A stretch of 64,000 bases of DNA, from positions 3,492 to 67,491 of the forward strand of contig JAUYSH010000023.1 in NCBI GenBank assembly GCA_030696455.1, read 5' to 3'. The translations under genes and the position numbers were made by a program. The stretch is from Elusimicrobiota bacterium. GTDB lineage: Bacteria; Elusimicrobiota; Elusimicrobia; UBA1565; UBA9628. Shown here piece by piece: positions 4,910-29,039 of this stretch; position 1 is the first letter of the stretch; each line of letters begins with the position of its first letter. The notes beneath the pieces were generated by a model. That model ran no database searches and was not told the DNA's origin. It saw only the letters and a list, made by a program, of their open reading frames with translations.

Positions 4910-4916
4910 GAGCCCC

Positions 4917-6708: not shown

Positions 6709-6749
6709 GGCGCTATCGTATAACTATCCTCAAGGATAGCGACAGCGCG

Positions 6750-8299: not shown

Positions 8300-8461
8300 G
8301 CCCGCAGTTTAACGGAAATTTCGGCGCCGCCCATAGGCCTTTGGGCCCAGGGGACCCGGGCCTAATCAGCCTAGATGGTGTCAGGCTTAAATGATTCGGG
8401 AACGCGCTTTTTTAAGGCTTATTCCCCGAGAGAGAGCCGGTCGGTGCCAGGCTTTAAGCTG

Positions 8462-11951: not shown

Positions 11952-12964
11952 CACCACTCCAGCCCCAGCATCATGCAATTGAGCCCCGAGCCGATGCCGA
12001 TGAAGCCCACACGGTCGCCCTTGTTGAGAAAGCCGCGCTCGTCGGCCAAGGCGGCGGTGAGCGGCAGGCTCACCGTGCCGATGTTGCCCAGGAACTCGTA
12101 GGTCGGGAAGTCCTTTTCCGCGCCGACGCCGCAGGCGTTGAGCAGAGCGGTCGTCTGGGGGCCGCCGACCTGGTGGGTGATGGTCTTATCCATGTCCGCG
12201 CTGCTCCAGTTCATTTTCTTGGAGAAGCTGAGCCAGGTGAGCTTGGCCAGCTCCATGCCGTTCTTGAGCACGGCGGGCGCGTCGGTCCTCATGAAGTCGC
12301 GGTCCCACTGGCACAGGTCCCAGTGCTGGGGCGCGGCCTGCACGGTGCCGCCAAGCAGCTTCGGGCCCGTCTTGCCGAAGCTTCCGTCGGTCAGGACCAC
12401 GCCGACGGCGCCGGAGCCGCCGGTCAAGGTCGCGATCGAGAGCTTGAAGTGCTCCATGGTCGGGTTCTTGAGCATGGAGGCGATCATCGCCTCGTTGATC
12501 TCGCGGGCCGACTCGCAGGAGACGACGAGGCCGGCCTTGATGTGCCCGAGCTCGATGCGATTGGCGATATCCACCATCGCCGACAAAACACCGAGGCAGG
12601 CGTTCGAGATATCGAAGACGGCGCAATCCTTGCTCACGCCCAGCTTCGAGGCGACGGCGCAGGCGGTCGCGGGCTCGGAGGATTCCTTGCAGACGCCGGC
12701 GTAGACGACGACGCCGAGGTCCGAGGGCTTCACGCCCGCCTTGGCGAGCGCCTTGCGGCCGGCGGAGGCGGCGCCGTCGGAGAGCTTGAAGCCCGCGTCC
12801 CACCAGCGGCGTTCCTTGATGCCTGTTAAGGCTTCGATCTGTCCCACCTGAAACCGGAGCGCGTCGTAGACGGGCTGGATGCGCTTCTCGAGCTCGGAGG
12901 AGGTGACCACGTTGGGGGCGAGTTCGTAAGCCAGACCGTCGAGGGTGACCTTGGTGTATTTCAT
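11951..12964 (-). CDS. oleA: OleA, thiolase-fold (KAS III-like) head-to-head condensing enzyme
   Basis: 337 aa. It is colinear by eye with Xanthomonas OleA as I remember it (GLAYELAP..TSSELE..QP.YD, SEPATA, active-site DISNACLG). It is the first gene of the oleABCD order. Confidence 0.85.
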   Translation of the reverse strand: MKYTKVTLDGLAYELAPNVVTSSELEKRIQPVYDALRFQVGQIEALTGIKERRWWDAGFKLSDGAASAGRKALAKAGVKPSDLGVVVYAGVCKESSEPATACAVASKLGVSKDCAVFDISNACLGVLSAMVDIANRIELGHIKAGLVVSCESAREINEAMIASMLKNPTMEHFKLSIATLTGGSGAVGVVLTDGSFGKTGPKLLGGTVQAAPQHWDLCQWDRDFMRTDAPAVLKNGMELAKLTWLSFSKKMNWSSADMDKTITHQVGGPQTTALLNACGVGAEKDFPTYEFLGNIGTVSLPLTAALADERGFLNKGDRVGFIGIGSGLNCMMLGLEW

Positions 12965-13004
12965 GTTGGTTCGAACTTATTCACCGTATCCGCGGATAGA
13001 CGAC

Positions 13005-13028
13005 AAAACTGTTGTCAACAACAGTTTT
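13005..13028. promoter_or_regulatory. AT-rich perfect inverted repeat (aaaactgttg-tcaa-caacagtttt) overlapping the pfaC stop codon
   Basis: 10-bp arms with a 4-nt spacer, read directly. On the minus strand the loop and arm spell TTGACA. A second 12-nt perfect palindrome, tatccgcggata, lies at 12987-12998. Both sit in the 62-nt pfaC-oleA gap. Confidence 0.5.
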
Positions 13029-16000
13029 ACGATCTCAGCTTCAAAGTAAAATCGCGCATTTCGTAAACGACGAGCCCGTCGCGCAAAAGGTAGCCGTCCG
13101 CCGTGAGGGTCTTCGAGGACTCATCGACGGCGGTGATCCAGCATTGGACCTCGACGGCCTTGTTCACGGGCGTGTACTGGCCGCGGTACAGCCACTTGTG
13201 GGTGCGGCCGAGGACCATGGACTCGAAGCGGCCGGCGCCGGGCCAGCGGTCGCGGGCGTGGCACTTCATCAACTCGATGAACGATTCCAGGCCGAGGGAG
13301 CCGGGGCAAACCGGGTCTTGGTAGAAATGGGCGCTGAAGAACCACTCGCTGGGATTGACGGCGCGGCGGCCGATGAGCGCGCCGAGGCCCTTTGGACCGG
13401 CATTATCATACTGCTCGACGGAATCAAGCAGCAGGAGCATAGGACCGGGCAACGCTGGAGTCCCTCCCTTCAGGGAGAGGGTCCTCGGCGTGGTCGAAGG
13501 AATGAACTGCTTCGCGCCGCGCAGACCGACCTGCTGAGAGAGCGACTCCTTGGTGAAGAACCCGAACTCGGTCTTGCCCTGATAGACGAGGCGACCCTGG
13601 GCATCGGTCATGGTCATGTCGTAGTTCTGGATGATCATCCCGCCGGACTGGGACACCTTGGTCATCACGACGCTCGTGACGAGGGTTCCGGTCTCGGGCG
13701 TGACCTCGACATGCTGTATGGCGTCGCCTCCCAGATTTCTAAACGACAAATCAACGGGGCTTGTTAATGCGGAGCCGCAGTAGGCGGCGAGCCAGCCGCA
13801 GGGCTGCAAAGCGACCTCGAGCAAGATCGCGAACGGCATGGTCGCCTGGCCGTTCTCGCGGAAGTACCAGGCATCCTTGGGGATCGCGTACTCGGCGATG
13901 GCGGAGGCGCCCGCCTTGAGGACGAACGGCTCGCCCTTCAGGCCGACGATGCGGTCGAGGAATTGATAAGGCGGGCCCGGCAAACGGGCCAGGATACGGT
14001 CCTTATCGAAGATCTTGTAGGGCGCGCCGAAGGCCTCGGACGGGTTGCCGTTCGAGTAGGCCATGATCTTGTCGGAGTCGTAGTAGACCGTCTTCTCATT
14101 CTTGAGCCACAGGGACTCGATGGCGGACCGATTCGTGCCGGAGAGACGGACCGACATGTCGGTGATCTGGACGATATTCTTATCATCCGAATACATAAAC
14201 GCGTCCGCGACGCAGAACGGAGTCCCATCGGCCTCGTAACCCAGCTCCTTGATGTGAAGCTCGTAGCGGGCCTTCTTGGTCGAGGCGAGGACCTGGCCGC
14301 GGCACTTGAGCTGGGAGGCGACGCCGGGGACGGGCTCGTGCCAGACCTTGCCCTTCTCCCCCACCCAGCCCATGCGCATCAATTGGACGCGGAGCGTGTG
14401 CAAGCAGCATTCGTACATCAAGGTGCCGGGCATCACGTTGTCGTCCTTGAAGTGACAGACGAGGTGCCAATCGTCGGGATGTATGTCCATTTCGCCGACG
14501 GCGCGGCCGAGGCCGTAGCGGCCGCCCTTGGGATCCAGCTCGAGGATCCGGTCGACGAGCTTCATGCGGCCGCCGGGCAAGGTATCCGGAACGAAAGGCA
14601 GGGACGCGAATGCCGGACCAAATGCCGTCTTCAAATCTCCGGCGCGTAGGGACTCGAATTGACCTTCGGTCAACGACACCTTATCAGTGAACGGCACGAG
14701 GGGCTTCCAATCAGACGGAACCTTACCCGGGACCGGCATTTTTTCGGCGTCGGTCAGAACGATCCCCTTGCCTTTCGCGAGTTCGGCGTTCGTGAAGAAG
14801 CCGGCGCAGCCTTTGCGCATGGTGAGCAGGGGCTTCCCATCGACCGTTGAATCGTACCGGAAGAAGAAAAGCCAGATGTCGTCGTGCTGGCCGAAGCCGT
14901 CGATGCTGATGTCGTACCTGATCACCTGGCCGGGCTTCGGCAAATGATCGTGGAAGGTGACGATGGCGTCGAGAAGGCGGTAAACCGCGTTGCCTTTCGT
15001 CTTGGAGTCGATGCCAAGGTAGCCGGAAAGGAAAAGGTCGGCCTGGCCGGCTTCGACGGCGATGCAGGTGGGGATGCGGCCGGAGTCCAAATACCAGCCA
15101 TTATGAAGCACGTCATGCTCGGTGATGCAGGAGCCGGGCTTCATGGAGTTCGGGGTGCCCGTCACGGAGAGGATGCGGTCGCACAGCATCAGGGGCTCCT
15201 CGGGGAGCCTGACTCGCGTGGGGTAGGAGTCCACGTGGGCGAAGGCTTCGCCGAGGACGGCGCCGATCTTGCCGGAGGCGTATTCGAGGCACGCCTTGCG
15301 GTCCATGAAGACGGATTTTTTCAACGGCAACGGATCGGGCGCGGATGCGGGGGCCGGAATAACGGATTGTCCCGAAGCGATGCGGATCTGCTGGCTGAGG
15401 TTGTGGGTCTGGAGCTTGGCGAAGTTCTCCGCGATTTTGAGGTACACCTGGTGGGCCTGCGCCGTCAGCGCGGCCGCGTTGGACAGGCTTCCGGCCGCGG
15501 ACGGCGCCGCCTGCGGGGAAACGACTGTTTCCGGAAACAGTTGGCGGGACGGAGATGGCTGGAACTCGTCGCCGGGAAGGCGGGGCTCGGGGATGCGCCG
15601 GGACGGAGCTAAGACCGGCACGGGCTCGTGACGAGGAGCGGGGGCTGGACTTGCCGCCTTCGGCGGCGACGGAGGAGACCAGGACACTTTGGCGGGACGG
15701 GCGCCTAAGGGTAAGCGGACGTATTGCGCCGGCTGCGCCGGCGCGCTTTGGTGACCGGCGCAGAAGGAACGAGCGCCGTAGAGCTGCTTCAAATCGACGG
15801 GGACGCGTTCGGCGATCAGGAAGGCCAACGTTTTAAGAATGCCCGACACATCGTCGAGCCCTCGACTGTCGACCGGCCTTGCGTTGTGGGTGAGCGGGCC
15901 TAGAATCTTACCGATCATTCTCGTGCACGAGCCCTGGGGACCTAATTCGATGAACGTGCGCACGCCGTCTTCATAGGCCGTTTTGATCAATGCCGAAAAA

Positions 16001-19000
16001 TTGACCGACCGGATGGCTTGGGTCGTGATGCTATCGGCGGCGGACTCGCGCGTGACCTCGTACGCCTTTCCAAAAGCACCGGAGTAGTACCGGATCCCCT
16101 TAGGGGCGCGGGTCGGGAAAAGATGGAGATCACGGTACTGCTTCTCCACCAATTTAGCGGCCGGGAAGTGCACCGTCGAGACGCCCTGCAACGGCAGGAA
16201 CACGCAGCCCAATCCTTCCACTAATTTCTCGACCGCCGAGCGATATCCCCCCACCACGCACTCGACGGGAGCGTTCACGATCAAGAGGGCCGCGCGCTCC
16301 GCGCCCTTGAGCGCCATGTTGACCGCGTCGGCGGGGCGGTCGACCACGCCGAGCACCCAGTCCACTTTTTCATTCGCGGGCAGGCGCCAGAACTGGCGGG
16401 CGGCGTCGCAGGGGCCGGCGAGCTCGGAGGTGAAGAGCGAGGATTGCTTCATGCGCCGGAGCATCTCGTCGCGGGCGGTCCAGGCGCGCGTGGCGAACAG
16501 GCCGGCGGTCTCGCCCAGGCTGTAGCCGACGACGGCGGAGGGGTTCACGCCCAGGGAGCGCATGAGATCGCTCGTCACGGTGCCGTGGGCGACCGAGGCG
16601 AAGATCAGGGCGTGGTAGTCGGCGTTGAGCTCGCTGTCGGCCTTGGCCTCCCAGCCCGGCTCGAAGGCGAGTCGCCAGGGGGCCACGCGCGCGGGCGTCA
16701 TCTGGTCGCGCAGGTGGCCGTTCTCCGCGTCCTGGCGGCGCAGGACCTCGGGCCACTGCGCGCCGAGGGCGGCGGTCATGCCCAGGTACTGGTTGCCCGA
16801 GCCGGGGAAGACGAAGGCCAGGTCCCCACCCAGCGGCGGGCGCGTGGTGAGGAAGGCGCGGTCGGAGGGCAGCGGGCGCTCGGGGTTGTCGCGCACCGAC
16901 TCGACGGCCATGCGCGCGACGGTGAGCAGCTCCTTCCAGTCGCGCGCGACGATGGCGCAGGCGTGGGAGGCTTCGGGCGAGGAGCCGCGCTTGAGCCACC
17001 AGCGGCGGGCGAGGGCCTCGATGCCGTCGCCGGGGTCCTGGGCGGCGGCCCAGTCGATCAGGGCGTTCAGGTCGGCCAGCAGGAAGACGGGGTCGGCGGC
17101 CTCGACGGCGAACAGGGCCTCGAGGCGCGAGCCGAGAGGCTGTCGGCGCTCGTCCTCGACGAGCGGGTCCGAGGTCTCGCGCTCGAGCTGTTCGAGCACG
17201 ACGTGGACGCAGCCGCCGTCGACGCCGAGGGAGGTGACGCCGGCGCGGCGCGGGCCGTCGGCGCGGTTTCGCAGCCAGAAGGAGGCGCGGCGCGGCGAGT
17301 GGAAGCGCTTGGACGCCGTCGACAGGGGCGAGATCGGGTTGACGATCGTCGGCCCGGCCGGGAGGATTTCCTGATAGAGGGATAAGGCGGCCTTGACCAG
17401 GCCCGCCAGGCCCGCGGCCGCGCCGGCATGGCCGATCACGGATTTCGAGGAGGACAAGGCGAGGGGCAGGTCGGCCGCGGCCGTGCCGAAGAACTCGACG
17501 GCCGCGGCGGCCTCGCAGCGATCCTCCTTGGCGTCGCCGGAGCCGTGGCACTCCAAAAGACCGATGGTGCTCGGGTCCACCTTCGCGTCGTCGTAAGCGC
17601 GGCGAAGAGCCTCGACGCAAGCCTCCGGCGTGGGGACGACCGAGTCGGCTCCTCCGCCGGAGGCGGCTCCAAGGCCCTTGATCACCGCGTAAATCCGGTC
17701 GCCGTCGCGCAGGGCGTCGTCGAGGCGCTTGAGCACGACCGTGGCGGCGCCCTCGCCGGGGGTCGAGCCGTCGGCGGAGGCGTCGAACGGGCGCGGGCGG
17801 CCGCCGGCCGAGAAGGGCTTGAGCGCGTGCGACCCGGCCAGCGCGCGGGCCTCGCCCGCGACGTCGGCGGCGCCGGCGACGGCGGCGTCCACCTCGCCGC
17901 GCTGAAGGGCGCGGACGGCCGCCTCGAGCGCCTTGAGGCCGGAGTTCTCCTCGGCGGAGACGGTGAAGCTCGGGCCGCCGAGGCGGAACTCGCGCGCGAC
18001 GCGGCTGGCGGCGACGCTCGCCAGGCCGCCCATCACGCGGTTCGCGGTGAGGGCGGGGCCGCAGGCGTCCCGCAGGGAGGAAAGCCAGGAGTACCGCTCC
18101 GCGGACGACAACGACCAGGCCTTTGCCTTGGCCCAGGCGTCAGCCGAATTTTCAAGGGACCAACGCAGATCGTAATGCGTGATCGCCATATCAAAAGCGA
18201 CGCCGAGGAAGACCCCGACTCTATCACGTCCTTCTTCCGATAATTTCGAGTCGGCAATCGCCGCCGCGGCGCTCTGCAGCGCCAGGAGTTGCTGCGGCAG
18301 CATCTCCTCCATTTCTTTAGGAGGGATCCGAAAGGAGGCGGCATCCGAGCCGGCCTCGGGCAGAAATCGGCCTTTGAAGCCGGCCGGGGCGTCGATGCCC
18401 TGCCAACGGTCCTCGGCGTACGAGGACTCCGGCTCGATGCCGCCGAGGACCGCTTCCTGATATGAGCGGAGATCGGGCAACGAGCCGAATCGAGCGTCCA
18501 TGCCGACGATGGCGACGGGGACGGACGACGGACTTGCGCGGCGAACGGATGGAGTACTCTTTGCGGGCGCCTTACGACGCTCCGGAGCCTCTTCCACAAG
18601 CAAATGAGCATTGATGCCGCCGAAGCCGAAGGCTGATAGCGCGGCTCGCCGCGGCGTCTTTGCATCGCGCCTCGACCATGGCGATGCTTCCGATTGAACA
18701 CGAAAGGGACTCTCCGAAAGACCGGCATTCGGATTAGGAGTGGAGTAGTTCGCGTTAGGAGGAAGGATCTCGTTTTCGAAACCCAACAACACTTTCATTA
18801 AGCCCGCGGAACCCGCCGCCGTGAGAAGATGACCGATGTTGGACTTGACCGATCCCAAGGCGCACTGACCCTTGGTCCAGCCCCTTTCTCCCCATAATGC
18901 TTTCAAGCTCGCCACCTCGATCGGATCGCCGGTCGGCGTTCCCGTCGCGTGGCACTCGATGAAGTCGATCTGAGACGGCGAAAGTCCGGATTCGAGATAG

Positions 19001-19929
19001 GCCGCGCGCATCGCGCGCAGCTGGCCGACGGTGTTGGGCGCCAGCAGGCTTCCCCCCACGTCGTTGGACAGGCCGCCGGCCAGGAGGACGCCGCGGATGC
19101 GGTCGCCGTCGCGCTGGGCGTCGGACAGGCGCTTGAGGACGAAGAGGCCGGCGCCTTCGCCGACCACGAGGCCGTCGGCCGCCGCGTCGAACGGCGACGG
19201 GATACCTGACGCGGAGAGAGCGCGCAGCTGGGAGAAGCCCATCTGCGTGTACAGGGATTGCGGACGAGACATGCCGCCGGCGAGCATCGCGTCGGCGCGG
19301 CCGGCGCGCAGCTCCTCCATGGCGAACTTCAGCGCGTAAAGCGACGAGGCGCAGGCCGCGTCGAGCGTCCAGGAGCCGCCGCCGAGGCCGAAGGCCTTGG
19401 TCAGCACGCCGCCGGGAAGGCCGGCGACGAAGCGGTTGGCGGGATTGACGCGCGACGAGGGCTGACGCGGCGCGAGCCCCAGCGCGTCGCGCTCGAAGGC
19501 GGGCAGGAGCAGCTCGCGCGACCAGGCCGAGGCGCCGTCGGTGGGCAGGACGAGCTGGCCCAGGACGACGCCCATGCGGGACTTGTCGGAGGCGGTCAGC
19601 TTCGCGCCGGCGAGCGCTTCCCGCGCGGCGTGGAGGGCCAGATGAAACGCCGGATCGAGGGACGACGCCCAGTCGGGGTCGAGGGCCAGGCCCGAGGGGT
19701 CGAAGACGAAATCGGAGACGAAGCACGCCTTCTTCGAGTAGACCTTGTCGGCCGCGCCCTTGGCTGGATCGAAGGCGGCCTCCGGGGAGAGCGCCCAGCG
19801 GCCGGCCGGGACCTCGCGCGCGGAGCAGCGGCGCGCGACCAGGTTCTCCCAGAACCGCGCGGGCGTGGGCGCGTCGGGGAAGATTCCCCCCGCTCCGACG
19901 ATCGCGATCGGCTCCGTATTCCGGCTCAT
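13027..19929 (-). CDS. pfaC: PUFA-synthase subunit, PfaC-like (KS-CLF-AT-DH-DH)
   Basis: 2300 aa. KS (LDAACASSLYAL), KS-like CLF lacking the Cys (FTVSAEENSGL), acyltransferase (VVGYSLGE), and two FabA-type dehydratases (HFKDDNVMPGTLMYE; SAHFYQDPVCPGSLG). ATGA overlap with the upstream lipoprotein gene. Confidence 0.9.
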   Translation of the reverse strand: MSRNTEPIAIVGAGGIFPDAPTPARFWENLVARRCSAREVPAGRWALSPEAAFDPAKGAADKVYSKKACFVSDFVFDPSGLALDPDWASSLDPAFHLALHAAREALAGAKLTASDKSRMGVVLGQLVLPTDGASAWSRELLLPAFERDALGLAPRQPSSRVNPANRFVAGLPGGVLTKAFGLGGGSWTLDAACASSLYALKFAMEELRAGRADAMLAGGMSRPQSLYTQMGFSQLRALSASGIPSPFDAAADGLVVGEGAGLFVLKRLSDAQRDGDRIRGVLLAGGLSNDVGGSLLAPNTVGQLRAMRAAYLESGLSPSQIDFIECHATGTPTGDPIEVASLKALWGERGWTKGQCALGSVKSNIGHLLTAAGSAGLMKVLLGFENEILPPNANYSTPNPNAGLSESPFRVQSEASPWSRRDAKTPRRAALSAFGFGGINAHLLVEEAPERRKAPAKSTPSVRRASPSSVPVAIVGMDARFGSLPDLRSYQEAVLGGIEPESSYAEDRWQGIDAPAGFKGRFLPEAGSDAASFRIPPKEMEEMLPQQLLALQSAAAAIADSKLSEEGRDRVGVFLGVAFDMAITHYDLRWSLENSADAWAKAKAWSLSSAERYSWLSSLRDACGPALTANRVMGGLASVAASRVAREFRLGGPSFTVSAEENSGLKALEAAVRALQRGEVDAAVAGAADVAGEARALAGSHALKPFSAGGRPRPFDASADGSTPGEGAATVVLKRLDDALRDGDRIYAVIKGLGAASGGGADSVVPTPEACVEALRRAYDDAKVDPSTIGLLECHGSGDAKEDRCEAAAAVEFFGTAAADLPLALSSSKSVIGHAGAAAGLAGLVKAALSLYQEILPAGPTIVNPISPLSTASKRFHSPRRASFWLRNRADGPRRAGVTSLGVDGGCVHVVLEQLERETSDPLVEDERRQPLGSRLEALFAVEAADPVFLLADLNALIDWAAAQDPGDGIEALARRWWLKRGSSPEASHACAIVARDWKELLTVARMAVESVRDNPERPLPSDRAFLTTRPPLGGDLAFVFPGSGNQYLGMTAALGAQWPEVLRRQDAENGHLRDQMTPARVAPWRLAFEPGWEAKADSELNADYHALIFASVAHGTVTSDLMRSLGVNPSAVVGYSLGETAGLFATRAWTARDEMLRRMKQSSLFTSELAGPCDAARQFWRLPANEKVDWVLGVVDRPADAVNMALKGAERAALLIVNAPVECVVGGYRSAVEKLVEGLGCVFLPLQGVSTVHFPAAKLVEKQYRDLHLFPTRAPKGIRYYSGAFGKAYEVTRESAADSITTQAIRSVNFSALIKTAYEDGVRTFIELGPQGSCTRMIGKILGPLTHNARPVDSRGLDDVSGILKTLAFLIAERVPVDLKQLYGARSFCAGHQSAPAQPAQYVRLPLGARPAKVSWSPPSPPKAASPAPAPRHEPVPVLAPSRRIPEPRLPGDEFQPSPSRQLFPETVVSPQAAPSAAGSLSNAAALTAQAHQVYLKIAENFAKLQTHNLSQQIRIASGQSVIPAPASAPDPLPLKKSVFMDRKACLEYASGKIGAVLGEAFAHVDSYPTRVRLPEEPLMLCDRILSVTGTPNSMKPGSCITEHDVLHNGWYLDSGRIPTCIAVEAGQADLFLSGYLGIDSKTKGNAVYRLLDAIVTFHDHLPKPGQVIRYDISIDGFGQHDDIWLFFFRYDSTVDGKPLLTMRKGCAGFFTNAELAKGKGIVLTDAEKMPVPGKVPSDWKPLVPFTDKVSLTEGQFESLRAGDLKTAFGPAFASLPFVPDTLPGGRMKLVDRILELDPKGGRYGLGRAVGEMDIHPDDWHLVCHFKDDNVMPGTLMYECCLHTLRVQLMRMGWVGEKGKVWHEPVPGVASQLKCRGQVLASTKKARYELHIKELGYEADGTPFCVADAFMYSDDKNIVQITDMSVRLSGTNRSAIESLWLKNEKTVYYDSDKIMAYSNGNPSEAFGAPYKIFDKDRILARLPGPPYQFLDRIVGLKGEPFVLKAGASAIAEYAIPKDAWYFRENGQATMPFAILLEVALQPCGWLAAYCGSALTSPVDLSFRNLGGDAIQHVEVTPETGTLVTSVVMTKVSQSGGMIIQNYDMTMTDAQGRLVYQGKTEFGFFTKESLSQQVGLRGAKQFIPSTTPRTLSLKGGTPALPGPMLLLLDSVEQYDNAGPKGLGALIGRRAVNPSEWFFSAHFYQDPVCPGSLGLESFIELMKCHARDRWPGAGRFESMVLGRTHKWLYRGQYTPVNKAVEVQCWITAVDESSKTLTADGYLLRDGLVVYEMRDFTLKLRS

Positions 19930-20942
19930 CGCTTATAGATGGTGTACGCTTCGGCGTCTTCGGCCCACTCGACGTTGGCTCGGTTCAAGCGCCGCAGGAC
20001 GCCGAGCCAGCCGCCGTCCGCGGGGCTCGTGACCTTGCCCGAAAGGGCGGCCTTCGAGGCGATGACGCGGATCGTCTCCGCGGAGACGGAGTCGCTCTCC
20101 TGAGGGAGCTCGGCGATGAGGCGCACGCCGAGCTTCTTGGCCTCCTCGTCCGGGTACTCCCAGGACTCGCCCGCCTTCAGGCGCTTCTCCTTCACGTTCT
20201 CGTTGGGCACGACGAGCGCGGTCTGATCCTTCGAGCCGAGGTCGTAGATGTTGTACAGGTAGATCCAGGCGTCGCGCGTCGCGGTCACCTTGAGCGTCGC
20301 CTCCTCGCCGTGAAGGAAGCGCTGTTTGGACACTTCGAGCTCGACGAAGAAATCCTTATCGCCCGCGGCCTCGCGCGGGACCGCGCAGGCCTTGAGCCTC
20401 ATGCGGTACAGGCAGCCCGGGCACTCCGGCGCGTCCCGGTAGCCCTCGTCGATCACCTGCTCCTTGAGGATGCGCCCGCTGCGCGTCGTCTGCAGGATGC
20501 CCTCGGTCAGGCGCGTCTCCTTGCGCAGGCCTTCCTGCTGGAAGTCCATGAACTTGGACTTCACCTCGACGCCGAGGAAGTCCTGGACCGCGGCGGCGCG
20601 GGCCTGCTCCATCGCGGCGGCGCGGGTCTGGTGGCGCGTGTCCTGCGGGCCGACGGCGACCGACGCGGAACCCTCGAGCCAGGTGCAGCCGTCGGGGTCG
20701 ACGCCGAGCACCTTGCCCTGGCGCTCCTGGACCTCGTTGCGCACGACCGCTTCCTTCGACTCGCCCTTCTCCGTCATAACAACAACTCCGCCGCTACGCG
20801 GCGGAGTTTCGCCGTGGGCCTTCTCGGCGCGCTCCCTCACCGCCTCGTATTCGGGGCCGGACGCGGCCGTGACTCGGAGCTTGCCGCCGCCGCAGGCGGA
20901 CAGCGCGAAGGCGAGAGCGCAGAGAGGAAGGAGCCTGGTCAT
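19926..20942 (-). CDS. Lipoprotein with a DUF4384-like C-terminal domain, embedded in the pfa operon
   Basis: 338 aa. Signal and lipobox MTRLLPLCALAFALSAC. The C-terminal block FFVELEVSKQRFLHGEEATLKVTATRDAWIYLYNIYD..ALVVPN..KAGESWEYP..IRVIASK fits the DUF4384 pattern. The start abuts the upstream stop (TAAATG) and the stop overlaps the pfaC start. Confidence 0.75.
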   Translation of the reverse strand: MTRLLPLCALAFALSACGGGKLRVTAASGPEYEAVRERAEKAHGETPPRSGGVVVMTEKGESKEAVVRNEVQERQGKVLGVDPDGCTWLEGSASVAVGPQDTRHQTRAAAMEQARAAAVQDFLGVEVKSKFMDFQQEGLRKETRLTEGILQTTRSGRILKEQVIDEGYRDAPECPGCLYRMRLKACAVPREAAGDKDFFVELEVSKQRFLHGEEATLKVTATRDAWIYLYNIYDLGSKDQTALVVPNENVKEKRLKAGESWEYPDEEAKKLGVRLIAELPQESDSVSAETIRVIASKAALSGKVTSPADGGWLGVLRRLNRANVEWAEDAEAYTIYKR

Positions 20943-21098
20943 TTAATAGCCGCCCGCCTCTTTGTCGAGGGAGTCGTGCGCCTTCTCGGAGGCGCCATGC
21001 GAGCCTTCGTAGTTGGGGCGCGGCTCGGACTTGCGCTCCTTGCAGGCGCCGGCGGCGAGGGCGGACGTGAACAGCAGGGCGAACAGGATCTTCTTCAT
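20943..21098 (-). CDS. Small (51 aa) putative lipoprotein, not in the supplied ORF track
   Basis: My own translation: MKKILFALLFTSALAAGACKERKSEPRPNYEGSHGASEKAHDSLDKEAGGY*. A GGGAGA Shine-Dalgarno sits 4 nt before the ATG and 12 nt after the pfaA TAA. The stop directly abuts the next ATG. Confidence 0.6.
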   Translation of the reverse strand: MKKILFALLFTSALAAGACKERKSEPRPNYEGSHGASEKAHDSLDKEAGGY

Positions 21099-21110
21099 GA
21101 TGTCTCCCGG

Positions 21111-24100
21111 TTAAGCGGCGGTCTCAACGCCGTTGCGGCGGAACGCGGCGGCCAGCGAGGCGTCCGACGCGCACTCGAAGCCCTCGAGCCGGGCGACGAG
21201 CGCGCCGCGCTCATCGACGAATTCGATGTCGGCGCCGGCCAATCCGTCGGCGAGCTTGACGGCCTTGACCACGACGCGCACGCCGTTGGCCGGGAACGAC
21301 TCGGCGTACTGGCGGTAGCGCGCGGCGAAGCTCGGCAAGGAGGGCGCGCCCATCCGGGCGTCCGTCCAAAGGATCATGGCCTGGAACGCGGCGTCGAGCG
21401 CCGCGGGGTCGCTCAGCCAGCGGTCGCGGATCGGCGCGCGGGTCCACGACGCGGGCGGCAGGGCCGTTTTCGACTCCACGACGATGCCTTCCGGTCCGCA
21501 ATGCGGCACGGCCAGAATGAACCTCATGTCGGCCCCGTGAAAAAGCACCTCGCCGTAGGCCTGCTCGATCGAACGGCCGTAGGCCGGGCCCGCGACCTTC
21601 AGCGCCGCCGCGGGGGCGGACGGGCGCTTCGCCGCGAGAAGGACCTTCGCGGAGATGTGGAGCGCCCCGCCCTCGCCGCGCAGCTCGGCGGGAACGACGA
21701 ACAGCCCATCGCGCTTCTCGGCGGATCCGGCGTGAGCCTTCACCGTCGTCGCGAAGGCGGGCTTCACGACGATGCCTTTCGCCACGCGCAGGTCGTCGAA
21801 GCCGACGAACGCGAGGCCGGGGTTGGAGTGAAGGGCCGCGTGGGCCAGCCACTCGGCGGACACCGCCAGCGGCAAAACGGCGCGGCCGTTGAGGACATGG
21901 GAGGCGAGGAACGGATAGGCCTCGAGCGTCACGTCGCGCTCGAAGCTGACGGGCAGGGCGGCCTTCGTGCCCGGCAAGGCGGCCAGGACGACGGTTTCCG
22001 CCGGGCCCGAGCCGCGCAGCTCGGCGATCAGGTGCTCGCCGCCGGCCGCGAGGCCGATGACGCCCACGCCTTCCGCGGCGAACAGCTTCTTGAGATCGGC
22101 GTCGACCATCCCGCCGTCCCATGGGCCCCAGCCGAGCGAGGCGACGCGGCACTTGGGCAGGCGCGCGGCGAGCACATGCGCGGCCTTGTTGAGCGCCTCG
22201 TTGGCGATCGCGTAGTCCGACTGGCCCACGCGGCCGTAGCGGGCCGTCGAGGAGGAGAAGAGGGCGAGAACGCGAAGCTCGCAGGGCACGACGGCGTCGA
22301 GAAGATGACGAAGGCTCGAGAGCTTGGTATCCAGCACGGCGTCCAGCATCGACGGCGTTTTCTCGAGGATGCTCTTGTCGGCCAGAACGCCCGCGCCGTG
22401 GACGATCCCCCGGACCGGGCCGAAGTCCTCGACCGTTTCGGCGACGAGCGCCTTGACCGCGGCGGCGTCGCGCGCGTCGACGGCGCGGTAGCGGGCCTCC
22501 GCGCCGGCGGCCGTCAGGCGCGACAGCGTGGACCTGATCTCGCGCGCGGCCAGAACGTCCTTGGCGCGGGCGCCGATCTCCTTGGGGGACAGGCCGGACG
22601 AGGACTTCGCGATCAAGGACCGAAGGGCGCTTTCATTCGCCGCGGACGCGTACTCCGCCGGCTCCGTGCCGGGCAGGGGGCTGCGGCCGACGAGGACGAG
22701 GCGGGGCTTGAAGGCCTTGGCGAGCGCGAGCGCGCACTCGGCCGTGACGCCGCGCGCGCCGCCGGTGACGATGACGGCGTCGCCGGCCTTGAGCGGCTCG
22801 CGGCCCGACGGGGAGGCGGGGCGTTCGACGAGCGCGACGGCGCGCAGGCCCGCCTCGGAGAGGGCGGCCTCGACGGGGCCGTCGAAGGAGAGCTCCTTGG
22901 CGAGCAGCTTCGCGGCGGCGTCGAGCGGAAGGGCCGGGGAAACGTCGACGGCGCGGCAGACGGACTTCCATTCGCGGGCCGCGGTCTTCATCAGGCCGGC
23001 GAGGCCGCCGAAGGCGGGGTCCTGGTCCATGCCGCCCTCGAGGCCGAGGGCGCCGTCGAGGCGGGTCACCGTCATGATCAGGCCGCGGACGCCGCGGGAT
23101 TCGAAGGAGCGGCCGGCGGCCTGGACGAGGGAGAAGGACTTCTTGAGGTAGGACTCGGAGTCGGACGTCCACGGGGAGCCTTTCGCGGCGGGGCGCACGG
23201 GTGCCACGACGATCAGGGCGCCGAGCTCGGCGGGAAGGGAGGCCGCGTCGTCGACGGAGACGAGCTCGGCTTTATGGCCCTTGGCGAGGAGCTCCCGGAC
23301 GAGGGCGGCGTCGAGGCCGCTGTCCTTGGTGACGGCGATGGTCAGGGATTTATGCAAGGGGTAGGCGTCACGGGGGCCGGCGGGGGTCAGTTCCGGAACG
23401 AGCCGGGAGATGATGCAGGGGCCTTCCGAGGGCTTCGCGGAAGGAACGGCGAAGTCGACGGCGGCCGCGGGGACCGGCGCGGGCGCGGAAACCGCGGTGC
23501 CTTCGGACAGATAAACGGCGATCTGATTGAGCGTCCTTAACGTGCCCAGATGTTCGGGTTTCACCTTCGGAGCGCCGGGCAACTTCTCGGAAACGGCGGA
23601 GAGGATCTCGACCCTTTTGATCGAATCGATGCCGAGGTCTCCTTCCAGATCCATGTCGGGGTCGATGGTGTCGGCCGGATAACCGGTCTTTTCAGCCACG
23701 ACGGAGAGAAGAACCGGCAAGATCTCGGTCGACGGAGCATTACCGGGAACGCTCGCGACGGCCGCGGGCATGGATGCGGGCGCGGACGCCGCGATGCCTT
23801 CGGACAGATAGATGGAGATCTGTTTCAGGGTGCGCAGCGTGCCGAGGTGCTCGGGCTTTACTTTAGGGGCGCCGGGCAATTTTTCGGAAACGGCGGAAAG
23901 GATTTCCACGCGCTTGATGGAGTCGATGCCGAGGTCCCCCTCCAGATCCATGTCGGGGTTGATGGTGTCGGCCGGATAACCGGTCTTTTCGGACACGACG
24001 GAGAGAAGAACCGGCAAGATCTCGGTCGACGGAGAATTACCGTGAACGCTCGCGACGGCCGCGGGCATGGATGCGGGCGCGGACGCCGCGATGCCTTCGG

Positions 24101-27100
24101 ACAGATAGATGGAGATCTGTTTCAGGGTGCGCAGCGTGCCGAGGTGCTCGGGCTTCACTTTAGGGGCGCCGGGCAATTTTTCGGAGACGGCGGAGAGGAT
24201 TTCGACGCGCTTGATGGAGTCGATTCCGAGGTCCCCCTCCAGGTCCATGTCGGGGTTGATCGTTTCGGCCGGATAACCGGTCTTTTCGGACACGACGGCG
24301 ACCAGGACGGAGACGATGTCCGCCTTCGGCGTGACGGAAACGGCAACGGGTTGGGGGATCGTCACGGGCGCGAACGTCGATGCGCCGCCCGACATCCTCG
24401 CGTATAACGCCTGCTGCTGCTCGACGAGCGCCTGGACGGAGCGTTGAGCCGAATCCTGGCCCTGAAGGAACTGGAGATGCAGGGCCGCGGTCTGCTCCTG
24501 GAGGCGGGTCAAGGCGTCGATGCTCGCCTGGGCGGCGGACAGGGCTTGGCCGAGGAGCCCGGCCTCGCCGCCTCCGGCGGCGAGGCCGGGATGCTTCGCA
24601 CCCGGCACGGACGCGTCTTCGGAAGGCTTCATAGCGTCCAGCGTCGTCGCGGGCGCGGGGAAGTTCTTGCGGGGCGTGGAGCGGTAAACGGCGCCGGTGA
24701 GCACAACGGACATCTTCGGCTTGGGGCGGCAATCGGAGAGGCCTTTCTCCCCTCCCTGCCAATCCGACAGCTCGATCGAATGACCAAGGGCGGCTAATTG
24801 TGCGAGCGTTCTGGCAAGGTCGCCCATGCCGTTCTTCTTTCCGTTCGACGCGTCGGTCGCGATAGCGACAAATTCCTGGCCCTTGAGGATTTGGGCAACG
24901 AGACCGGTGAGTCTATTGCCCGCGCCGCATTCGACGAAGGTGGTGATGCCGTCGCGGCGCATCGCCTCGATCGATTTCACGAACTCGACGGGGTGGGCGA
25001 GCTGCTGGGACAAAACCTCCCGCGCCTTCGGCGCGGGTTCGGGATATACGGCACCGGTGGTGTTCGAGTAGACCGGCATGGACGGTTTTGAGAACGGCAA
25101 CGGATCGAGGGCTGTCGCGAAGGGCTTCAACGCCGGAGCGACGAGCTTGCTGTGAAACGCCGCGGCCACGGGAAGACGGACCACCTTGTGGCCGCGAGCG
25201 GCCAACGCCTTTTCAGCCTTGTCGATCTCGGAGGTCGCCCCGGACAGCACGTTTTGCGTGGGCGCGTTGCGATTGGCGATCACGAGGTCGAGCTTCTCTT
25301 CCTTCACGGCTTTTTCGACTTCGTCGAACGACGCGATGACCGCGAGCATGGAGCCCTTATCCGAGCCATCGCCCTTCATCAGACGGCCTCGGAGGCCGGA
25401 CAAGGCGTGGAGCGTCTTCGCGTCATAGCGTCCCGCGACATGCAGCGCGACCAATTCGCCGTACGAATGGCCCGCGGCGGCGTCGGCCTTCACGCCGAAG
25501 CGGGACAGAACGCCCCAAGCCGCCAACGCGGCGGCGCCGAGGGCGGGCTGGGCGACGGAGGTGTCCCTGAGATTTTTCTCCTGCGCTTCCTTCTGCTCCG
25601 GCTTCCACGCGGGCTGAGGGAACATGAGAGAGGAGAGCTTACCGCCCTCGAACGCCGCGTCGGCCTCGGTCAGAGCGCCGAACGCCTCGGGGAACGCGCA
25701 GACCAGATCGCGAGACATACCCGCGTACTGAGCGCCCTGGCCGGGGAAGAGGACTCCCAGCTTGCCGGGCTTCCCCGTACCATAATAAATACCGTCGATC
25801 GGGGAGGACTTGAGGGACCCGGCCTTCCCGGCGAGGGCCTTCCAATCCGCCGAGCGTTCCAGAGCGATCACCAAACGGCTTGACGCCGAGGAGTCGAACG
25901 ACATGCGGGACGAATGGCACGCCTTACGGACCTCGTCCCACGTTTCGGCGGCCGTGAGCATGGACAATCCACCTTGCACATCGCCGGACACGGCGAACAG
26001 CTCGTGCTCGGCGTCCCAATCCGTTTCCGTCTTGGCGGAATTCCCCTCTTCGAGGATCGCGTGGAAGTTGGTGCCGCCGAAGCCGAGGGCGGAGCAGGCG
26101 GCGCGGCGGGGATGGTCCATGGAGGCCATCCACGGGCGCTTCTCGAGGCTCAAATAAAAGGGAGTTTGGCCGGAGGCCAAAATCGGCAGGGGCTCGTTGA
26201 CCTTGATGGTCGGCGGGAGCACCTTATGGCGCAGCGCCATCGCGACCTTGATGAAGGCGGCGGAGCCGGCGGCGGCCTTGGTGTGGCCGACCATGGACTT
26301 CACCGAGCCGAGCGCGCACCACGCGCCTTGGCGCTTGGAACCCTTCTGGAACACGCCGGATATCGCTTCCACCTCGATGCCGTCGCCGACGGCGGTGCCG
26401 GTGCCGTGGGCTTCCACGAGCTCCACGGTATCCGGCGACAAGCCCGACAGGCGGTAGGCCTCCTCGATGGCGCGGGTCTGGCCGCCGGCCGAGGGAGCGT
26501 AGATTGATTTTCCGCGGCCGTCGGAGGAGGTCCCCAGGCCGCGCAGGATCGCGTGGATACGATCTCCGTCTTTAACGGCGTCGTCGAGCCGCTTAAGAAC
26601 GGCCATTCCGACGCCCTCTCCGAGAGTCGTTCCGTCGGCGGAAGCGTCGAAGGGCTTGGCGTGACCCGACTTAGAGAGCGCCGGAGTTTTAGTGAAGCAC
26701 GTATACATAAAAACATCGTTGAAGGTATCCACTCCGCCGGTCACCACCATCTTGGCCCGCCCCGCTTGGAGCTCCAAGGCGGCCATGTGCATGGCCGATA
26801 AAGATGAACCGCACGCGGCGTCGACGACGCAGTTCGTGCCGCCGAGGTTGAAGCGGTTGGCCACGCGGCCGGCGATGACGTTGCCGAGCAGGCCGGGGAA
26901 CGAAGCCTCCTGCCAGGGCACGAACTCGTCCGACATGCGCGCCAGCGCGTCCTCGGCCTGCGTCGGGGGCACGCCGGCGGCGAGGATGGCCTTGCGCCAG
27001 GCGGGCAGGCTCAGGCGGGCGCCGAGAGGGATGACGATCTCGAGGGCGCCGGTGACGCCGAGGATGCACGACACGCGGCCGCGCTCCCAGGTGTCCTGGT

Positions 27101-27449
27101 CGACGGGGTAGCCCGCGTCGGTGAGGGCCATCTTCGCGGCGACGAGGGCGAACAGCTGCGCGGGGTCCGTGGCTTCGAGCGTGTTCGGAGAGAGGCCGAA
27201 CTCCGAGGGGTCGAAGTCGTAGGCGTCGAGGAAGCCGCCCTTGTACGCGTACACCTTGTCCTGCTTCTTCGCGTCGGCGTCGAAATAGTCTTCCTTGCTC
27301 CAGTGCGTCGCCGGGACGTCCTGGATCGCGTCCACCTTGTTCTTGATGTTCGCCCAGTACTGGCGCAAGGTCTTCGCCTTGGGGAACACGCCTCCGAGGC
27401 CGACCACGGCCAACGGGATGAACTCGGGGGACTTGTCGGTTTTTTTCAT
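21111..27449 (-). CDS. pfaA: PUFA-synthase subunit PfaA (KS-MAT-ACPx3-KR-DH)
   Basis: 2112 aa. KS (VDAACGSSLSAMH), MAT (GHSYGE), three ACPs (DLGIDSIKRVEILS x3), KR (VTGGARGVTAE), and a PKS-type DH (SHVLNGRAVLP). Confidence 0.92.
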   Translation of the reverse strand: MKKTDKSPEFIPLAVVGLGGVFPKAKTLRQYWANIKNKVDAIQDVPATHWSKEDYFDADAKKQDKVYAYKGGFLDAYDFDPSEFGLSPNTLEATDPAQLFALVAAKMALTDAGYPVDQDTWERGRVSCILGVTGALEIVIPLGARLSLPAWRKAILAAGVPPTQAEDALARMSDEFVPWQEASFPGLLGNVIAGRVANRFNLGGTNCVVDAACGSSLSAMHMAALELQAGRAKMVVTGGVDTFNDVFMYTCFTKTPALSKSGHAKPFDASADGTTLGEGVGMAVLKRLDDAVKDGDRIHAILRGLGTSSDGRGKSIYAPSAGGQTRAIEEAYRLSGLSPDTVELVEAHGTGTAVGDGIEVEAISGVFQKGSKRQGAWCALGSVKSMVGHTKAAAGSAAFIKVAMALRHKVLPPTIKVNEPLPILASGQTPFYLSLEKRPWMASMDHPRRAACSALGFGGTNFHAILEEGNSAKTETDWDAEHELFAVSGDVQGGLSMLTAAETWDEVRKACHSSRMSFDSSASSRLVIALERSADWKALAGKAGSLKSSPIDGIYYGTGKPGKLGVLFPGQGAQYAGMSRDLVCAFPEAFGALTEADAAFEGGKLSSLMFPQPAWKPEQKEAQEKNLRDTSVAQPALGAAALAAWGVLSRFGVKADAAAGHSYGELVALHVAGRYDAKTLHALSGLRGRLMKGDGSDKGSMLAVIASFDEVEKAVKEEKLDLVIANRNAPTQNVLSGATSEIDKAEKALAARGHKVVRLPVAAAFHSKLVAPALKPFATALDPLPFSKPSMPVYSNTTGAVYPEPAPKAREVLSQQLAHPVEFVKSIEAMRRDGITTFVECGAGNRLTGLVAQILKGQEFVAIATDASNGKKNGMGDLARTLAQLAALGHSIELSDWQGGEKGLSDCRPKPKMSVVLTGAVYRSTPRKNFPAPATTLDAMKPSEDASVPGAKHPGLAAGGGEAGLLGQALSAAQASIDALTRLQEQTAALHLQFLQGQDSAQRSVQALVEQQQALYARMSGGASTFAPVTIPQPVAVSVTPKADIVSVLVAVVSEKTGYPAETINPDMDLEGDLGIDSIKRVEILSAVSEKLPGAPKVKPEHLGTLRTLKQISIYLSEGIAASAPASMPAAVASVHGNSPSTEILPVLLSVVSEKTGYPADTINPDMDLEGDLGIDSIKRVEILSAVSEKLPGAPKVKPEHLGTLRTLKQISIYLSEGIAASAPASMPAAVASVPGNAPSTEILPVLLSVVAEKTGYPADTIDPDMDLEGDLGIDSIKRVEILSAVSEKLPGAPKVKPEHLGTLRTLNQIAVYLSEGTAVSAPAPVPAAAVDFAVPSAKPSEGPCIISRLVPELTPAGPRDAYPLHKSLTIAVTKDSGLDAALVRELLAKGHKAELVSVDDAASLPAELGALIVVAPVRPAAKGSPWTSDSESYLKKSFSLVQAAGRSFESRGVRGLIMTVTRLDGALGLEGGMDQDPAFGGLAGLMKTAAREWKSVCRAVDVSPALPLDAAAKLLAKELSFDGPVEAALSEAGLRAVALVERPASPSGREPLKAGDAVIVTGGARGVTAECALALAKAFKPRLVLVGRSPLPGTEPAEYASAANESALRSLIAKSSSGLSPKEIGARAKDVLAAREIRSTLSRLTAAGAEARYRAVDARDAAAVKALVAETVEDFGPVRGIVHGAGVLADKSILEKTPSMLDAVLDTKLSSLRHLLDAVVPCELRVLALFSSSTARYGRVGQSDYAIANEALNKAAHVLAARLPKCRVASLGWGPWDGGMVDADLKKLFAAEGVGVIGLAAGGEHLIAELRGSGPAETVVLAALPGTKAALPVSFERDVTLEAYPFLASHVLNGRAVLPLAVSAEWLAHAALHSNPGLAFVGFDDLRVAKGIVVKPAFATTVKAHAGSAEKRDGLFVVPAELRGEGGALHISAKVLLAAKRPSAPAAALKVAGPAYGRSIEQAYGEVLFHGADMRFILAVPHCGPEGIVVESKTALPPASWTRAPIRDRWLSDPAALDAAFQAMILWTDARMGAPSLPSFAARYRQYAESFPANGVRVVVKAVKLADGLAGADIEFVDERGALVARLEGFECASDASLAAAFRRNGVETAA
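23501..24335 (-). repeat. Three tandem 297-bp near-identical repeats encoding the PfaA ACP domains
   Basis: cttcggacag recurs at 23501, 23798 and 24095. acggagagaagaaccggcaagatctcggtcgacggag recurs at 23701 and 23998. The period is 297 nt (99 aa). Confidence 0.9.
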
Positions 27450-27456
27450 GATCTCT

Positions 27457-28983: not shown

Positions 28984-29014
28984 GTTCGAACGCGCGTGAC
29001 GGAGAATGAGCCTG

Positions 29015-29020
29015 GATTAT
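29015..29020 (-). promoter_or_regulatory. Candidate -10 box (TATAAT) upstream of pfaD
   Basis: A perfect TATAAT on the minus strand, 32 nt before the pfaD TTG start and just after the DUF368 stop. The -35 at 17-nt spacing (agtaga) is poor. Confidence 0.25.
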
Positions 29021-29039
29021 ACCGTTTTTGGTCCGGGAT

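Follow-up and report, generated by a model that had tools for sequence, protein, structure and literature searches.

Two predicted lipoprotein genes between pfaA and pfaC of an Elusimicrobia pfa-ole operon and their likely origin in an orthocaspase cassette

The window analysed here is a 64,000-nucleotide stretch of contig JAUYSH010000023.1 (Elusimicrobiota bacterium, assembly GCA_030696455.1, positions 3,492 to 67,491 of the forward strand). Its minus strand carries an operon of the already known pfa-ole kind, in which genes for a polyunsaturated fatty acid (PUFA) synthase are followed by oleABCD, and between pfaA and pfaC of this operon lie two genes for predicted lipoproteins of 51 and 338 amino acids (aa). 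We find that the insertion is shared by a single clade of pfa-ole clusters, and that the pair is likely to stem from a cassette of three lipoproteins, namely an orthocaspase, a mini-lipoprotein of ~50 aa, and a large lipoprotein that joins a FlgP/LPP20-like domain to DUF4384. As to its role, we favour, with confidence that is evenly balanced, the picture of a former orthocaspase partner that was captured as an envelope scaffold and is co-translated with the synthase.

The two inserted genes and their products

The first-pass annotation, made from the letters of the stretch without database searches, had placed two lipoprotein genes between pfaA and pfaC, and translation, the GC content of third codon positions (GC3), lipoboxes and conservation all bear this out. 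The pfaA gene ends in TAA (21111-21113) and is separated by the spacer CCGGGAGACATC from the small open reading frame (ORF). Inside this 12-nt gap, at 21108-21103, lies a Shine-Dalgarno-like GGGAGA, 4 nt upstream of the small-ORF ATG and not 12 nt after the pfaA stop, as had been worded earlier. The stop codon of the small ORF is directly joined to the start codon of the 338-aa ORF (TAAATG), and the stop codon TGA of the latter (19926-19928) overlaps the ATG of pfaC (19927-19929) as ATGA; both junctions can be read directly from the sequence, as previously described, and 32 of 34 loci preserve this 4-nt overlap. From the two junctions and the spacer with its Shine-Dalgarno-like site we infer coupled translation. 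The GC content by codon position (0.60/0.46/0.90 in the small ORF and 0.68/0.46/0.91 in the large one, the last figure being GC3) resembles that of pfaA, pfaC and oleA, and ORFs on the antisense strand show the wrong pattern. Judged by their sequence, both ORFs are real genes.

Both N-termini conform to a PROSITE PS51257-type lipobox rule, which was applied by eye and with a regular expression (Lys or Arg within the first 7 residues, an uncharged hydrophobic stretch, then [LIVMFWSTAG]2-[LIVMFYSTAGCQ]-[AGS]-C with the Cys at 15-35), and a lipobox is present in most of the homologues scanned. The two products are very probably lipoproteins exported by the Sec pathway. In the 51-aa protein (MKKILFALLFTSALAAGAC KERKSEPRPNYEGSHGASEKAHDSLDKEAGGY) the signal peptide spans aa 1-18 (MKK, ILFALLFTSAL and AAGA before C19), the codon of the predicted lipid-acceptor Cys19 lies at 21042-21044, and the mature part of ~32 aa carries the motif PNYEGSxxASEKAHDSLDKE. 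In the 338-aa protein the signal peptide spans aa 1-16 (MTR, LLPLCALAF and ALSA before C17), in agreement with the lipobox ALSAC noted at first pass, and is followed by a tether of ~50 aa (aa 18-67) that contains PEYEAVRERAEKAH and the conserved motif PxYxAVxxRxExxH.

The small ORF has counterparts, 46-57 aa in length, in an alignment of 20 loci, in which the signal peptide, the lipobox Cys and the pattern P-[ND]-Y...[AS][HQ]xxL[DE] are conserved and the median pairwise ratio of nonsynonymous to synonymous substitution rates (dN/dS) is 0.5. It is present in 19 of the 29 insert-bearing metagenome loci described below (3 of the 29 are without upstream sequence) and is missing from several deep branches of the insert-bearing clade. 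Its mature product is homologous to the tether of the 338-aa protein (e.g., RPDYDGVKARSEGSHKSLDKE vs RPDYDAVKARSEKSHESLDR, E 4e-12), which is matched by 17 of 20 small ORFs; by this homology the 51-aa protein is a head-only duplicate of the large one, with its anchor and tether motif and without its body. A chance open frame in GC-rich spacer DNA is hardly credible: the ORF is short, finds no family match in Pfam, PADLOC or NCBIfam, and random ORFs are frequent at about 70% GC, but its length is held within narrow bounds, the signal peptide, lipobox Cys and mature motif are kept in the 20 aligned and 19 further metagenome loci, and it also occurs at a non-pfa locus whose large lipoprotein is just 34% identical to that of the window. 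Its GC3, its Shine-Dalgarno-like site with tight coupling, and its homology to the tether of the large protein speak equally against chance. The earlier view of this ORF as a gene is thus upheld by conserved length, lipobox and motif together with GC3, and conservation suggests that it is translated.

The 338-aa protein has 260 database relatives at E <= 0.001; the best 120 of these 260 are 55-89% identical to it and, where a source is named, it is Elusimicrobia or Elusimicrobiota. Among 12 aligned relatives (55-87% identity) more than 100 positions are invariant, including C86, C174-P-x-C177 and C186; in the window protein the CPxC motif reads C174-P-G-C177. The dN/dS of the folded region, compared with 14 relatives, ranges from 0.12 to 0.7 and is mostly below 0.5 (0.06-0.33 for the KS domain of pfaC), and that of the fast-evolving tether from 0.19 to 1.1, values in which dS is probably affected by the strong GC3 bias. 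The gene is under purifying selection.

Several of the invariant residues are cysteines. The CPxC motif (aa 174-177; 20412-20423, minus strand) as well as C86 and C186 are found in all 12 aligned pfa-linked homologues; the CPxC region is absent from the consensus of the 148-sequence family, in which C86 and C186 are present. These residues could form two disulfides, a redox site or a metal site.

The C-terminal half had been said to fit the DUF4384 pattern. This assignment is supported by the 146 of 148 aligned family members that match DUF4384 (E <= 1e-3), by four scanned relatives from other loci that reach 32.7-63 bits, and by a predicted beta-sandwich; the 338-aa protein itself scores 24.7-25.3 bits against PF14326 (E about 2e-5, aa 211-274), which is below the gathering score of 27. 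As its sequence relationships indicate, it is a DUF4384 member by homology and not by Pfam cut-off. The structure was modelled with AlphaFold2 (AF2) for aa 68-338 from a 148-sequence alignment (pLDDT 86.5, pTM 0.82); this model superseded a first one from 12 close homologues, which was too poor (pLDDT 62.7). The C-terminal half is predicted to be all-beta (pLDDT >90) and shows the beta-sandwich of about 80 residues that is expected of DUF4384.

The N-terminal domain of the model has the order beta-beta-alpha-(insert)-beta-beta (model strands 4-14 and 20-29, helix 36-56, strands 89-104 and 107-122). The SHS2-like fold, as described in PMC12222027, has a three-stranded sheet that is crossed on one side by a helix, and in ring formers also an insert that follows this helix; the model shows both. 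The insert (model 63-82; aa 130-149) is disordered and is the sole low-confidence segment of the model, and it coincides with the most conserved block of the protein, DFQQEGLR...LTESILQTTRxGR. Conserved yet disordered, it would fit a segment that becomes ordered only on assembly or on the binding of a partner. The single PDB sequence matched by the family profile below E 0.01 is FlgP of C. jejuni (9hmf_C, E 3.7e-4), in an alignment that spans the insert. FlgT_N is matched by 10 of 148 relatives, and the window protein itself has no match to Pfam LPP20, FlgO, FlgP or FlgT. The SHS2 assignment is thus suggested by a weak profile match and a predicted topology, and an LPP20-like domain, for which the first-pass annotation had proposed a search, is hinted at on the level of the family and not matched in the window protein by Pfam.

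An SHS2-like fold is common to FlgP, FlgT and Lpp20, and among proteins of this fold ring formation goes with an insert behind the helix (PMC12222027). Like FlgP, FlgT and Lpp20 of H. pylori (IPR024952), the 338-aa protein is predicted to be an N-terminally anchored lipoprotein that faces the periplasm, and its predicted topology is of their kind; the family profile aligns, weakly, to FlgP, including the insert region. In contrast to them, it has no flagellar context, adds a C-terminal DUF4384 sandwich and a long tether, and displays the invariant CPxC and two further Cys among the aligned pfa-linked sequences. On the strength of sequence and model comparisons, it may work most like an LPP20/FlgP-type periplasmic lipoprotein that is equipped with a protease-associated DUF4384 module. 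Apart from DUF4384, neither Pfam nor NCBIfam returned a match, and no homology to the phosphopantetheinyl transferase (PPTase) PfaE, the thioesterase PfaT or regulators was found; likewise, no PADLOC or NCBIfam model matches either lipoprotein, and no paralogue of either one was found elsewhere in the window.

Distribution of the insertion and the orthocaspase cassette

A genome scan that took one genome per species and was ascertained via the lipoprotein returned 35 loci, nearly all of them labelled as Elusimicrobia metagenome-assembled genomes (MAGs), with a few labelled 'bacterium', one 'Candidatus Endomicrobium' and one 'Nitrospira'. The lipoprotein gene is pfa-linked in 33 of these 35 species-level loci, in the order pfaA-[small ORF]-lipoprotein-pfaC, usually followed by oleA-oleB-oleC. 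Since ascertainment via the lipoprotein biases such a scan towards synteny, the survey was repeated via pfaC. Among 80 loci on metagenome contigs found by the pfaC KS domain, 29 show the lipoprotein gene in the pfaA-pfaC interval, 49 have these two genes next to each other at a distance of 2-168 nt, and 2 are uninformative. A neighbour-joining (NJ) tree was built from 107 KS domains; it is rough, purely distance-based and carries no bootstrap values. In it the 56 insert-bearing clusters group together in a single clade that is free of insert-less clusters, and the 49 insert-less ones are all placed elsewhere. This distribution therefore points to a single old capture with no loss seen, across a clade in which identity falls to about 54% for pfaA and to about 43% for the lipoprotein, and we regard one capture followed by vertical retention as highly probable.

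By name, the relatives of the insert-less clusters are Desulfuromonadales, Deltaproteobacteria, Hydrogenedentes, Planctomycetes and Nitrospinota, which fits the published Type I-like pfa clusters, often ole-linked (PMC3098273). The insertion is therefore neither unique to this genome nor, within the insert-bearing clade, randomly distributed relative to pfa and ole genes. The survey suggested by the first-pass annotation thus shows that it marks a whole clade of 56 clusters, but in all 49 of the nearest clusters outside pfaA abuts pfaC.

Two features of single lineages within the surveyed loci deserve mention. One sub-lineage (L002, at 17934-19343 on the minus strand, L003 and L037) carries, between pfaC and oleA and on the strand opposite to theirs, lnt, for an apolipoprotein N-acyltransferase of 469 aa; an enzyme of lipoprotein maturation is thus encoded within a lipoprotein-bearing operon. 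The lnt gene is not found in the window. In a complete-genome MAG (L001/L015, CP096137), pfaA (1811-8422) is called as 3-4 ORFs and pfaC (11061-17894) is poorly called, which may reflect frameshifts or assembly errors. A '54-aa ORF' before the caspase gene of L001 was rejected as a gene: it is probably the last part of pfaA in a shifted frame, as its end is similar to those of the pfaA products of the window and of L007.

The likely source of the pair is indicated by loci in which it has further company. In the pfa-linked loci L001/L015, L007, L011, L017, L045, L046 and L050 an extra gene of ~1.4 kb lies between pfaA and the small ORF, and encodes a lipoprotein orthocaspase of the Peptidase_C14 family with intact His (SGHG) and Cys (D[AS]CFSG) motifs. 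The closest relative of the window, L007, retains this gene. The same caspase precedes the lipoprotein in the non-pfa loci L030, which is flanked by MscS and UDG genes, L038, with Rep and integrase genes as neighbours, L044 and L128. In L044 the full trio of caspase, 50-aa lipoprotein and large lipoprotein (34% identical to that of the window) is found outside pfa. The caspase has been lost in most pfa-linked lineages; no caspase was found anywhere in the 64-kb window, including the position upstream of the pair; within the pair, the mini-lipoprotein lies next to the large one and has the tether motif in common with it. The window unit is therefore best described as a caspase-less derivative of the three-lipoprotein cassette, and a descent of the pair from such a cassette is, in our view, likely.

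Beyond this cassette the family is found in varied company. An exhaustive profile search returned 610 clusters at 50% identity; P0127 and P0142 are fused to a caspase, other relatives are fused to CsgG/LpoB/FlgO-like, LPP20 or CARDB domains, and others adjoin a CHASE2 Ser/Thr kinase with PP2C, FecR with WD40, RDD with GH77, or glycosyltransferases. PADLOC types the protease of the relatives as a generic defence-type caspase. A module specific to pfa, or a general accessory of PUFA and polyolefin systems as had been envisaged at first pass, is not supported, as the family also occurs outside pfa with caspases, kinases and glycosyltransferases. Published work places DUF4384, itself uncharacterised, among the accessory domains of orthocaspases, proteases, kinases and Csx30. 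The relatives share with these the domain itself and its recurrent association with caspases, as adjacent gene or as fusion; here, by contrast, it forms part of a separate predicted exported lipoprotein, is combined with SHS2, lacks a protease partner in the window and is embedded in a lipid-synthase operon. In L128 (149-5987) a distant caspase and DUF4384 lipoprotein pair (32% identity) adjoins the type III CRISPR genes Card1 and Cas_NE0113, a setting reminiscent of Csx30, for whose C-terminal domain DUF4384 variants are reported.

A candidate envelope scaffold and its rivals

According to the reading we favour, the three-lipoprotein cassette would have entered the pfaA-pfaC interval a single time, in the common ancestor of an Elusimicrobia pfa-ole clade. 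As the junctions suggest, ribosomes that leave pfaA would start anew on the small ORF, next on the 338-aa ORF and lastly on pfaC, so that both lipoproteins would be made whenever the synthase is made and translation of pfaC would run through them. From the lipoboxes one would expect the precursors to receive their lipid at Cys19 and Cys17, respectively, to be cleaved, and to stay anchored in a membrane leaflet that faces the periplasm. The large protein would present a flexible tether, then an SHS2 domain of FlgP/FlgT type and then the Ig-like DUF4384 sandwich, an arrangement that model and profiles support in part. By analogy with the ring-forming FlgP and FlgT, the insert of the SHS2 domain might mediate self-assembly or the binding of a partner. 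The DUF4384 sandwich might serve for binding, ancestrally of the lipoprotein caspase encoded next to it, and the mini-lipoprotein would probably occupy the same docking site, as a co-subunit or as a competitor. The pair of the window would thus act without a protease, as a scaffold or adaptor close to the membrane, with its production tied to the synthesis of polyunsaturated lipid and olefin. An oligomeric scaffold or adaptor, suggested by the model and by this analogy, is plausible, with confidence that falls somewhat short of even, and any functional tie to the pfa/ole product is proposed tentatively, as we are inclined to doubt it. As the pair has outlasted the caspase and always stays together with the synthase genes, we believe that its co-expression with the pathway is useful in itself.

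Several observations weigh against this picture. In an NJ tree of the lipoproteins, which has no bootstrap values, the non-pfa L030 is nested in the pfa-linked group, and the non-pfa L038, L040 and L043 fall between deep pfa-linked lineages; the lipoprotein tree is thus not cleanly congruent with the pfaC tree, which may reflect movement into and out of the operon or an error of the tree. Export and lipidation are read from a sequence rule, and the profile match to FlgP is weak. Foldseek searches of both models against the PDB returned generic Ig-like, arrestin and Spo0M sandwiches with TM <0.3 and gave no functional lead. Oligomerisation and the partnership with a caspase are both properties that we infer. 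Moreover, that the insert is kept in 56 of 56 clusters in which the caspase is mostly lost could equally mean a job specific to pfa/ole.

Next comes the possibility that the pair landed in the operon by chance, fulfils an envelope task unrelated to lipids, and has been frozen in place for the sake of its expression and of the dependence of pfaC initiation on it. The generic nature of the family with its varied contexts outside the clade, the single insertion event, and the coupling architecture, which would make an imprecise deletion costly, are all in keeping with such a hitch-hiker. Deletions have, however, occurred repeatedly in the same interval without harm to the operon, with the caspase mostly lost and the small ORF variable, and throughout the divergence of the clade noted above the large gene was never lost or relocated. 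That these deletions spared the large gene suggests that co-expression itself was selected, and we consider a frozen hitch-hiker rather unlikely.

A more specific role would make the pair a dedicated envelope arm of pfa-ole, which receives, localises or exports the polyunsaturated acyl or hydrocarbon product, or organises its deposition. This would agree with the position of the pair strictly within the operon, the conserved stop/start overlap with pfaC, its occurrence throughout the 56 clusters of the clade, among which the caspase and the small ORF are variable, the purifying selection, and the lnt gene between pfaC and oleA in one sub-lineage. On the other hand, only SHS2 and Ig-like folds are detected, with no lipid-binding or transport fold; the synthase and the Ole enzymes reside in the cytoplasm, with no gene for an inner-membrane transporter beside theirs; the sister pfa clusters, like the characterised pfa/ole systems, have no such gene; and the same family accompanies caspases, kinases and glycosyltransferases away from pfa. 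We hold this role to be improbable. The same low expectation applies to a domesticated version of it, in which the pair would be an envelope component of the Elusimicrobia pfa-ole system, a membrane-tethered periplasmic assembly that fixes where the lipid or C31-type hydrocarbon ends up, a destination that may be, for example, the outer membrane or a membrane domain. Handling or export of the product by the lipoproteins had been the first-pass suggestion; neither profile nor model nor Foldseek results revealed a feature of lipid or hydrocarbon binding or transport in these proteins, and handling is an unlikely prospect that we nevertheless keep in view.

Least convincing is an inactive, decaying relic of a caspase-based defence or cell-death module, which we judge very improbable: the caspase is absent from the whole window, PADLOC sees the protease of the relatives as a defence-type caspase and one distant caspase-DUF4384 pair stands beside type III CRISPR Card1 genes, but both ORFs are intact, dN/dS in the folded region is mostly below 0.5, over 100 positions including four Cys are invariant at 55-87% identity, most members of the clade are without the caspase and still have the gene, and PADLOC has no model for either lipoprotein.

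The host operon, its surroundings and the meaning of the insertion

The gene order on the minus strand of this high-GC Elusimicrobia genome is pfaD-pfaA-small ORF-338-aa lipoprotein-pfaC-oleABCD (Table 1). The pfa part comprises a PfaD-family enoyl reductase (NCBIfam TIGR02814 pfaD_fam, 622 bits vs a cut-off of 449), a PfaA that bears its ACPs in tandem, and a PfaC in which KS-CLF is combined with two DH domains of FabA type, and by gene content the contiguous thiolase, hydrolase, AMP-ligase and reductase genes make up a putative OleABCD set. The best match of the oleD product is to the NCBIfam OleD models (387 bits, E 7e-116), under their equivalog cut-off of 580; an alternative ORF at 8454-9500 was rejected as oleD, as it is in the wrong frame, is Arg-rich and gives spurious tblastn matches. 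The listed start of oleC overlaps oleB, and its true start probably lies near 11070.

No sigma-70-like promoter sites were found in 12800-29300 and no terminator-like sites at the gene junctions; the string from pfaD to oleD is presumed to form a single transcript. A hairpin at 20784-20808 (minus strand), in the tether-coding part of the 338-aa gene, was rejected as a terminator. It is a perfect 11-bp, GC-rich hairpin (AACTCCGCCGC-GTA-GCGGCGGAGTT, then GTTGTTATGA), partly shared with L006 only, and as it is unconserved in relatives it is therefore judged to be probably due to chance.

Table 1. Features of the pfa-ole operon and of the inserted genes; positions are those of the window.
Feature	Position	Strand	Basis and remarks
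pfaD (enoyl reductase), first operon gene	27457..28983	-	Pfam NMO + FabD_helical_ins; exact start codon uncertain
pfaA-like megasynthase, 2112 aa, KS-AT-ACPx3 or more-KR-DH	21111..27449	-	Pfam domains
12-nt spacer between pfaA and small ORF	21099..21110	-	read from sequence
51-aa mini-lipoprotein gene (predicted)	20943..21098	-	translation, 20-locus alignment, GC3
338-aa lipoprotein gene (predicted)	19926..20942	-	translation, starts MTRLLPLCALAFALSAC
338-aa protein, N-terminal part, aa 1-67	20742..20942	-	translation; lipobox; low pLDDT
338-aa protein, putative FlgP/FlgT_N/LPP20-like SHS2 domain, aa 68-190	20373..20741	-	profile match, AF2 topology, invariant columns
338-aa protein, predicted DUF4384 Ig-like beta-sandwich + C-terminal helix and strand, aa 196-338	19929..20357	-	Pfam PF14326; AF2
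pfaC/pfaBC-like megasynthase, 2300 aa, KS-CLF-AT-DH-DH	13027..19929	-	Pfam
oleA-like thiolase (FabH-like)	11951..12964	-	Pfam; NCBIfam NF006720, 480 bits vs cut-off 285
oleB-like alpha/beta hydrolase (haloalkane-dehalogenase-like)	11064..11978	-	Pfam Abhydrolase_1; NCBIfam
oleC-like AMP-dependent synthetase	9460..11550	-	Pfam AMP-binding, aa 178-553
oleD-like 2-alkyl-3-oxoalkanoate reductase (3beta-HSD/SDR family)	8462..9463	-	Pfam 3Beta_HSD

Several other genes of the window are related to lipids or to membranes. Directly upstream of pfaD, at 29040-29957 (minus strand), lies a gene for a VCA0040-like protein (PF04018, 'undecaprenyl phosphate translocase-like'), to which a fragment in L007 is 87% identical; more distant members of the clade have, in place of it, a DedA/VTT-domain gene that is oriented divergently. 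About 3.5 kb past oleD, on the opposite strand, a 1318-aa ORF (953-4909, plus strand, GC3 0.945) contains an animal haem peroxidase domain of the cyclooxygenase superfamily (E 1e-51) and could encode an enzyme that oxygenates fatty acids or PUFAs. A protein of PLD type, cardiolipin-synthase-like (36079-37281, plus strand), and an aldehyde dehydrogenase/LuxC-like acyl reductase (42044-44083, minus strand) are lipid-related as well and do not adjoin the operon.

In its enzymes, the operon resembles other pfa-ole clusters, such as those of Type I/L-like order (Shulse & Allen) and the Shewanella pfa and oleABCD genes, with which it shares pfaD, pfaA, a fused pfaBC-type gene and the linked oleABCD. 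The linkage of pfa and ole is documented in other bacteria (PMC3098273), and so is the production of a C31 polyene (PMC6463001). The Elusimicrobia cluster differs in the insertion, as pfaA abuts pfaC in the 49 nearest insert-less clusters. The published pfa cluster types comprise only synthase, PPTase and related genes, and the word 'lipoprotein' is absent from PMC3098273. In the literature searched on DUF4384, on pfa/ole of Elusimicrobia and on orthocaspase lipoproteins, no description was found of the insertion, of the three-lipoprotein cassette or of the head-only paralogue.

The bacteria concerned have not been grown in culture, and nothing in the proteins so far links them to lipid chemistry. 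To our knowledge, operons for PUFA synthases and Ole enzymes have been thought to encode cytoplasmic enzymes only. Here two predicted exported lipoproteins appear to be wired translationally between megasynthase genes, which offers a clonable test of whether such lipids need partners in the envelope. Should the pair prove to be a domesticated component of the system, it would be the first extracytoplasmic accessory for any PUFA or olefin synthase and would provide the first function of a DUF4384 protein. Altogether, the orthocaspase cassette from which the pair likely descends may help to assign roles to the periplasmic orthocaspases of bacteria and to DUF4384.

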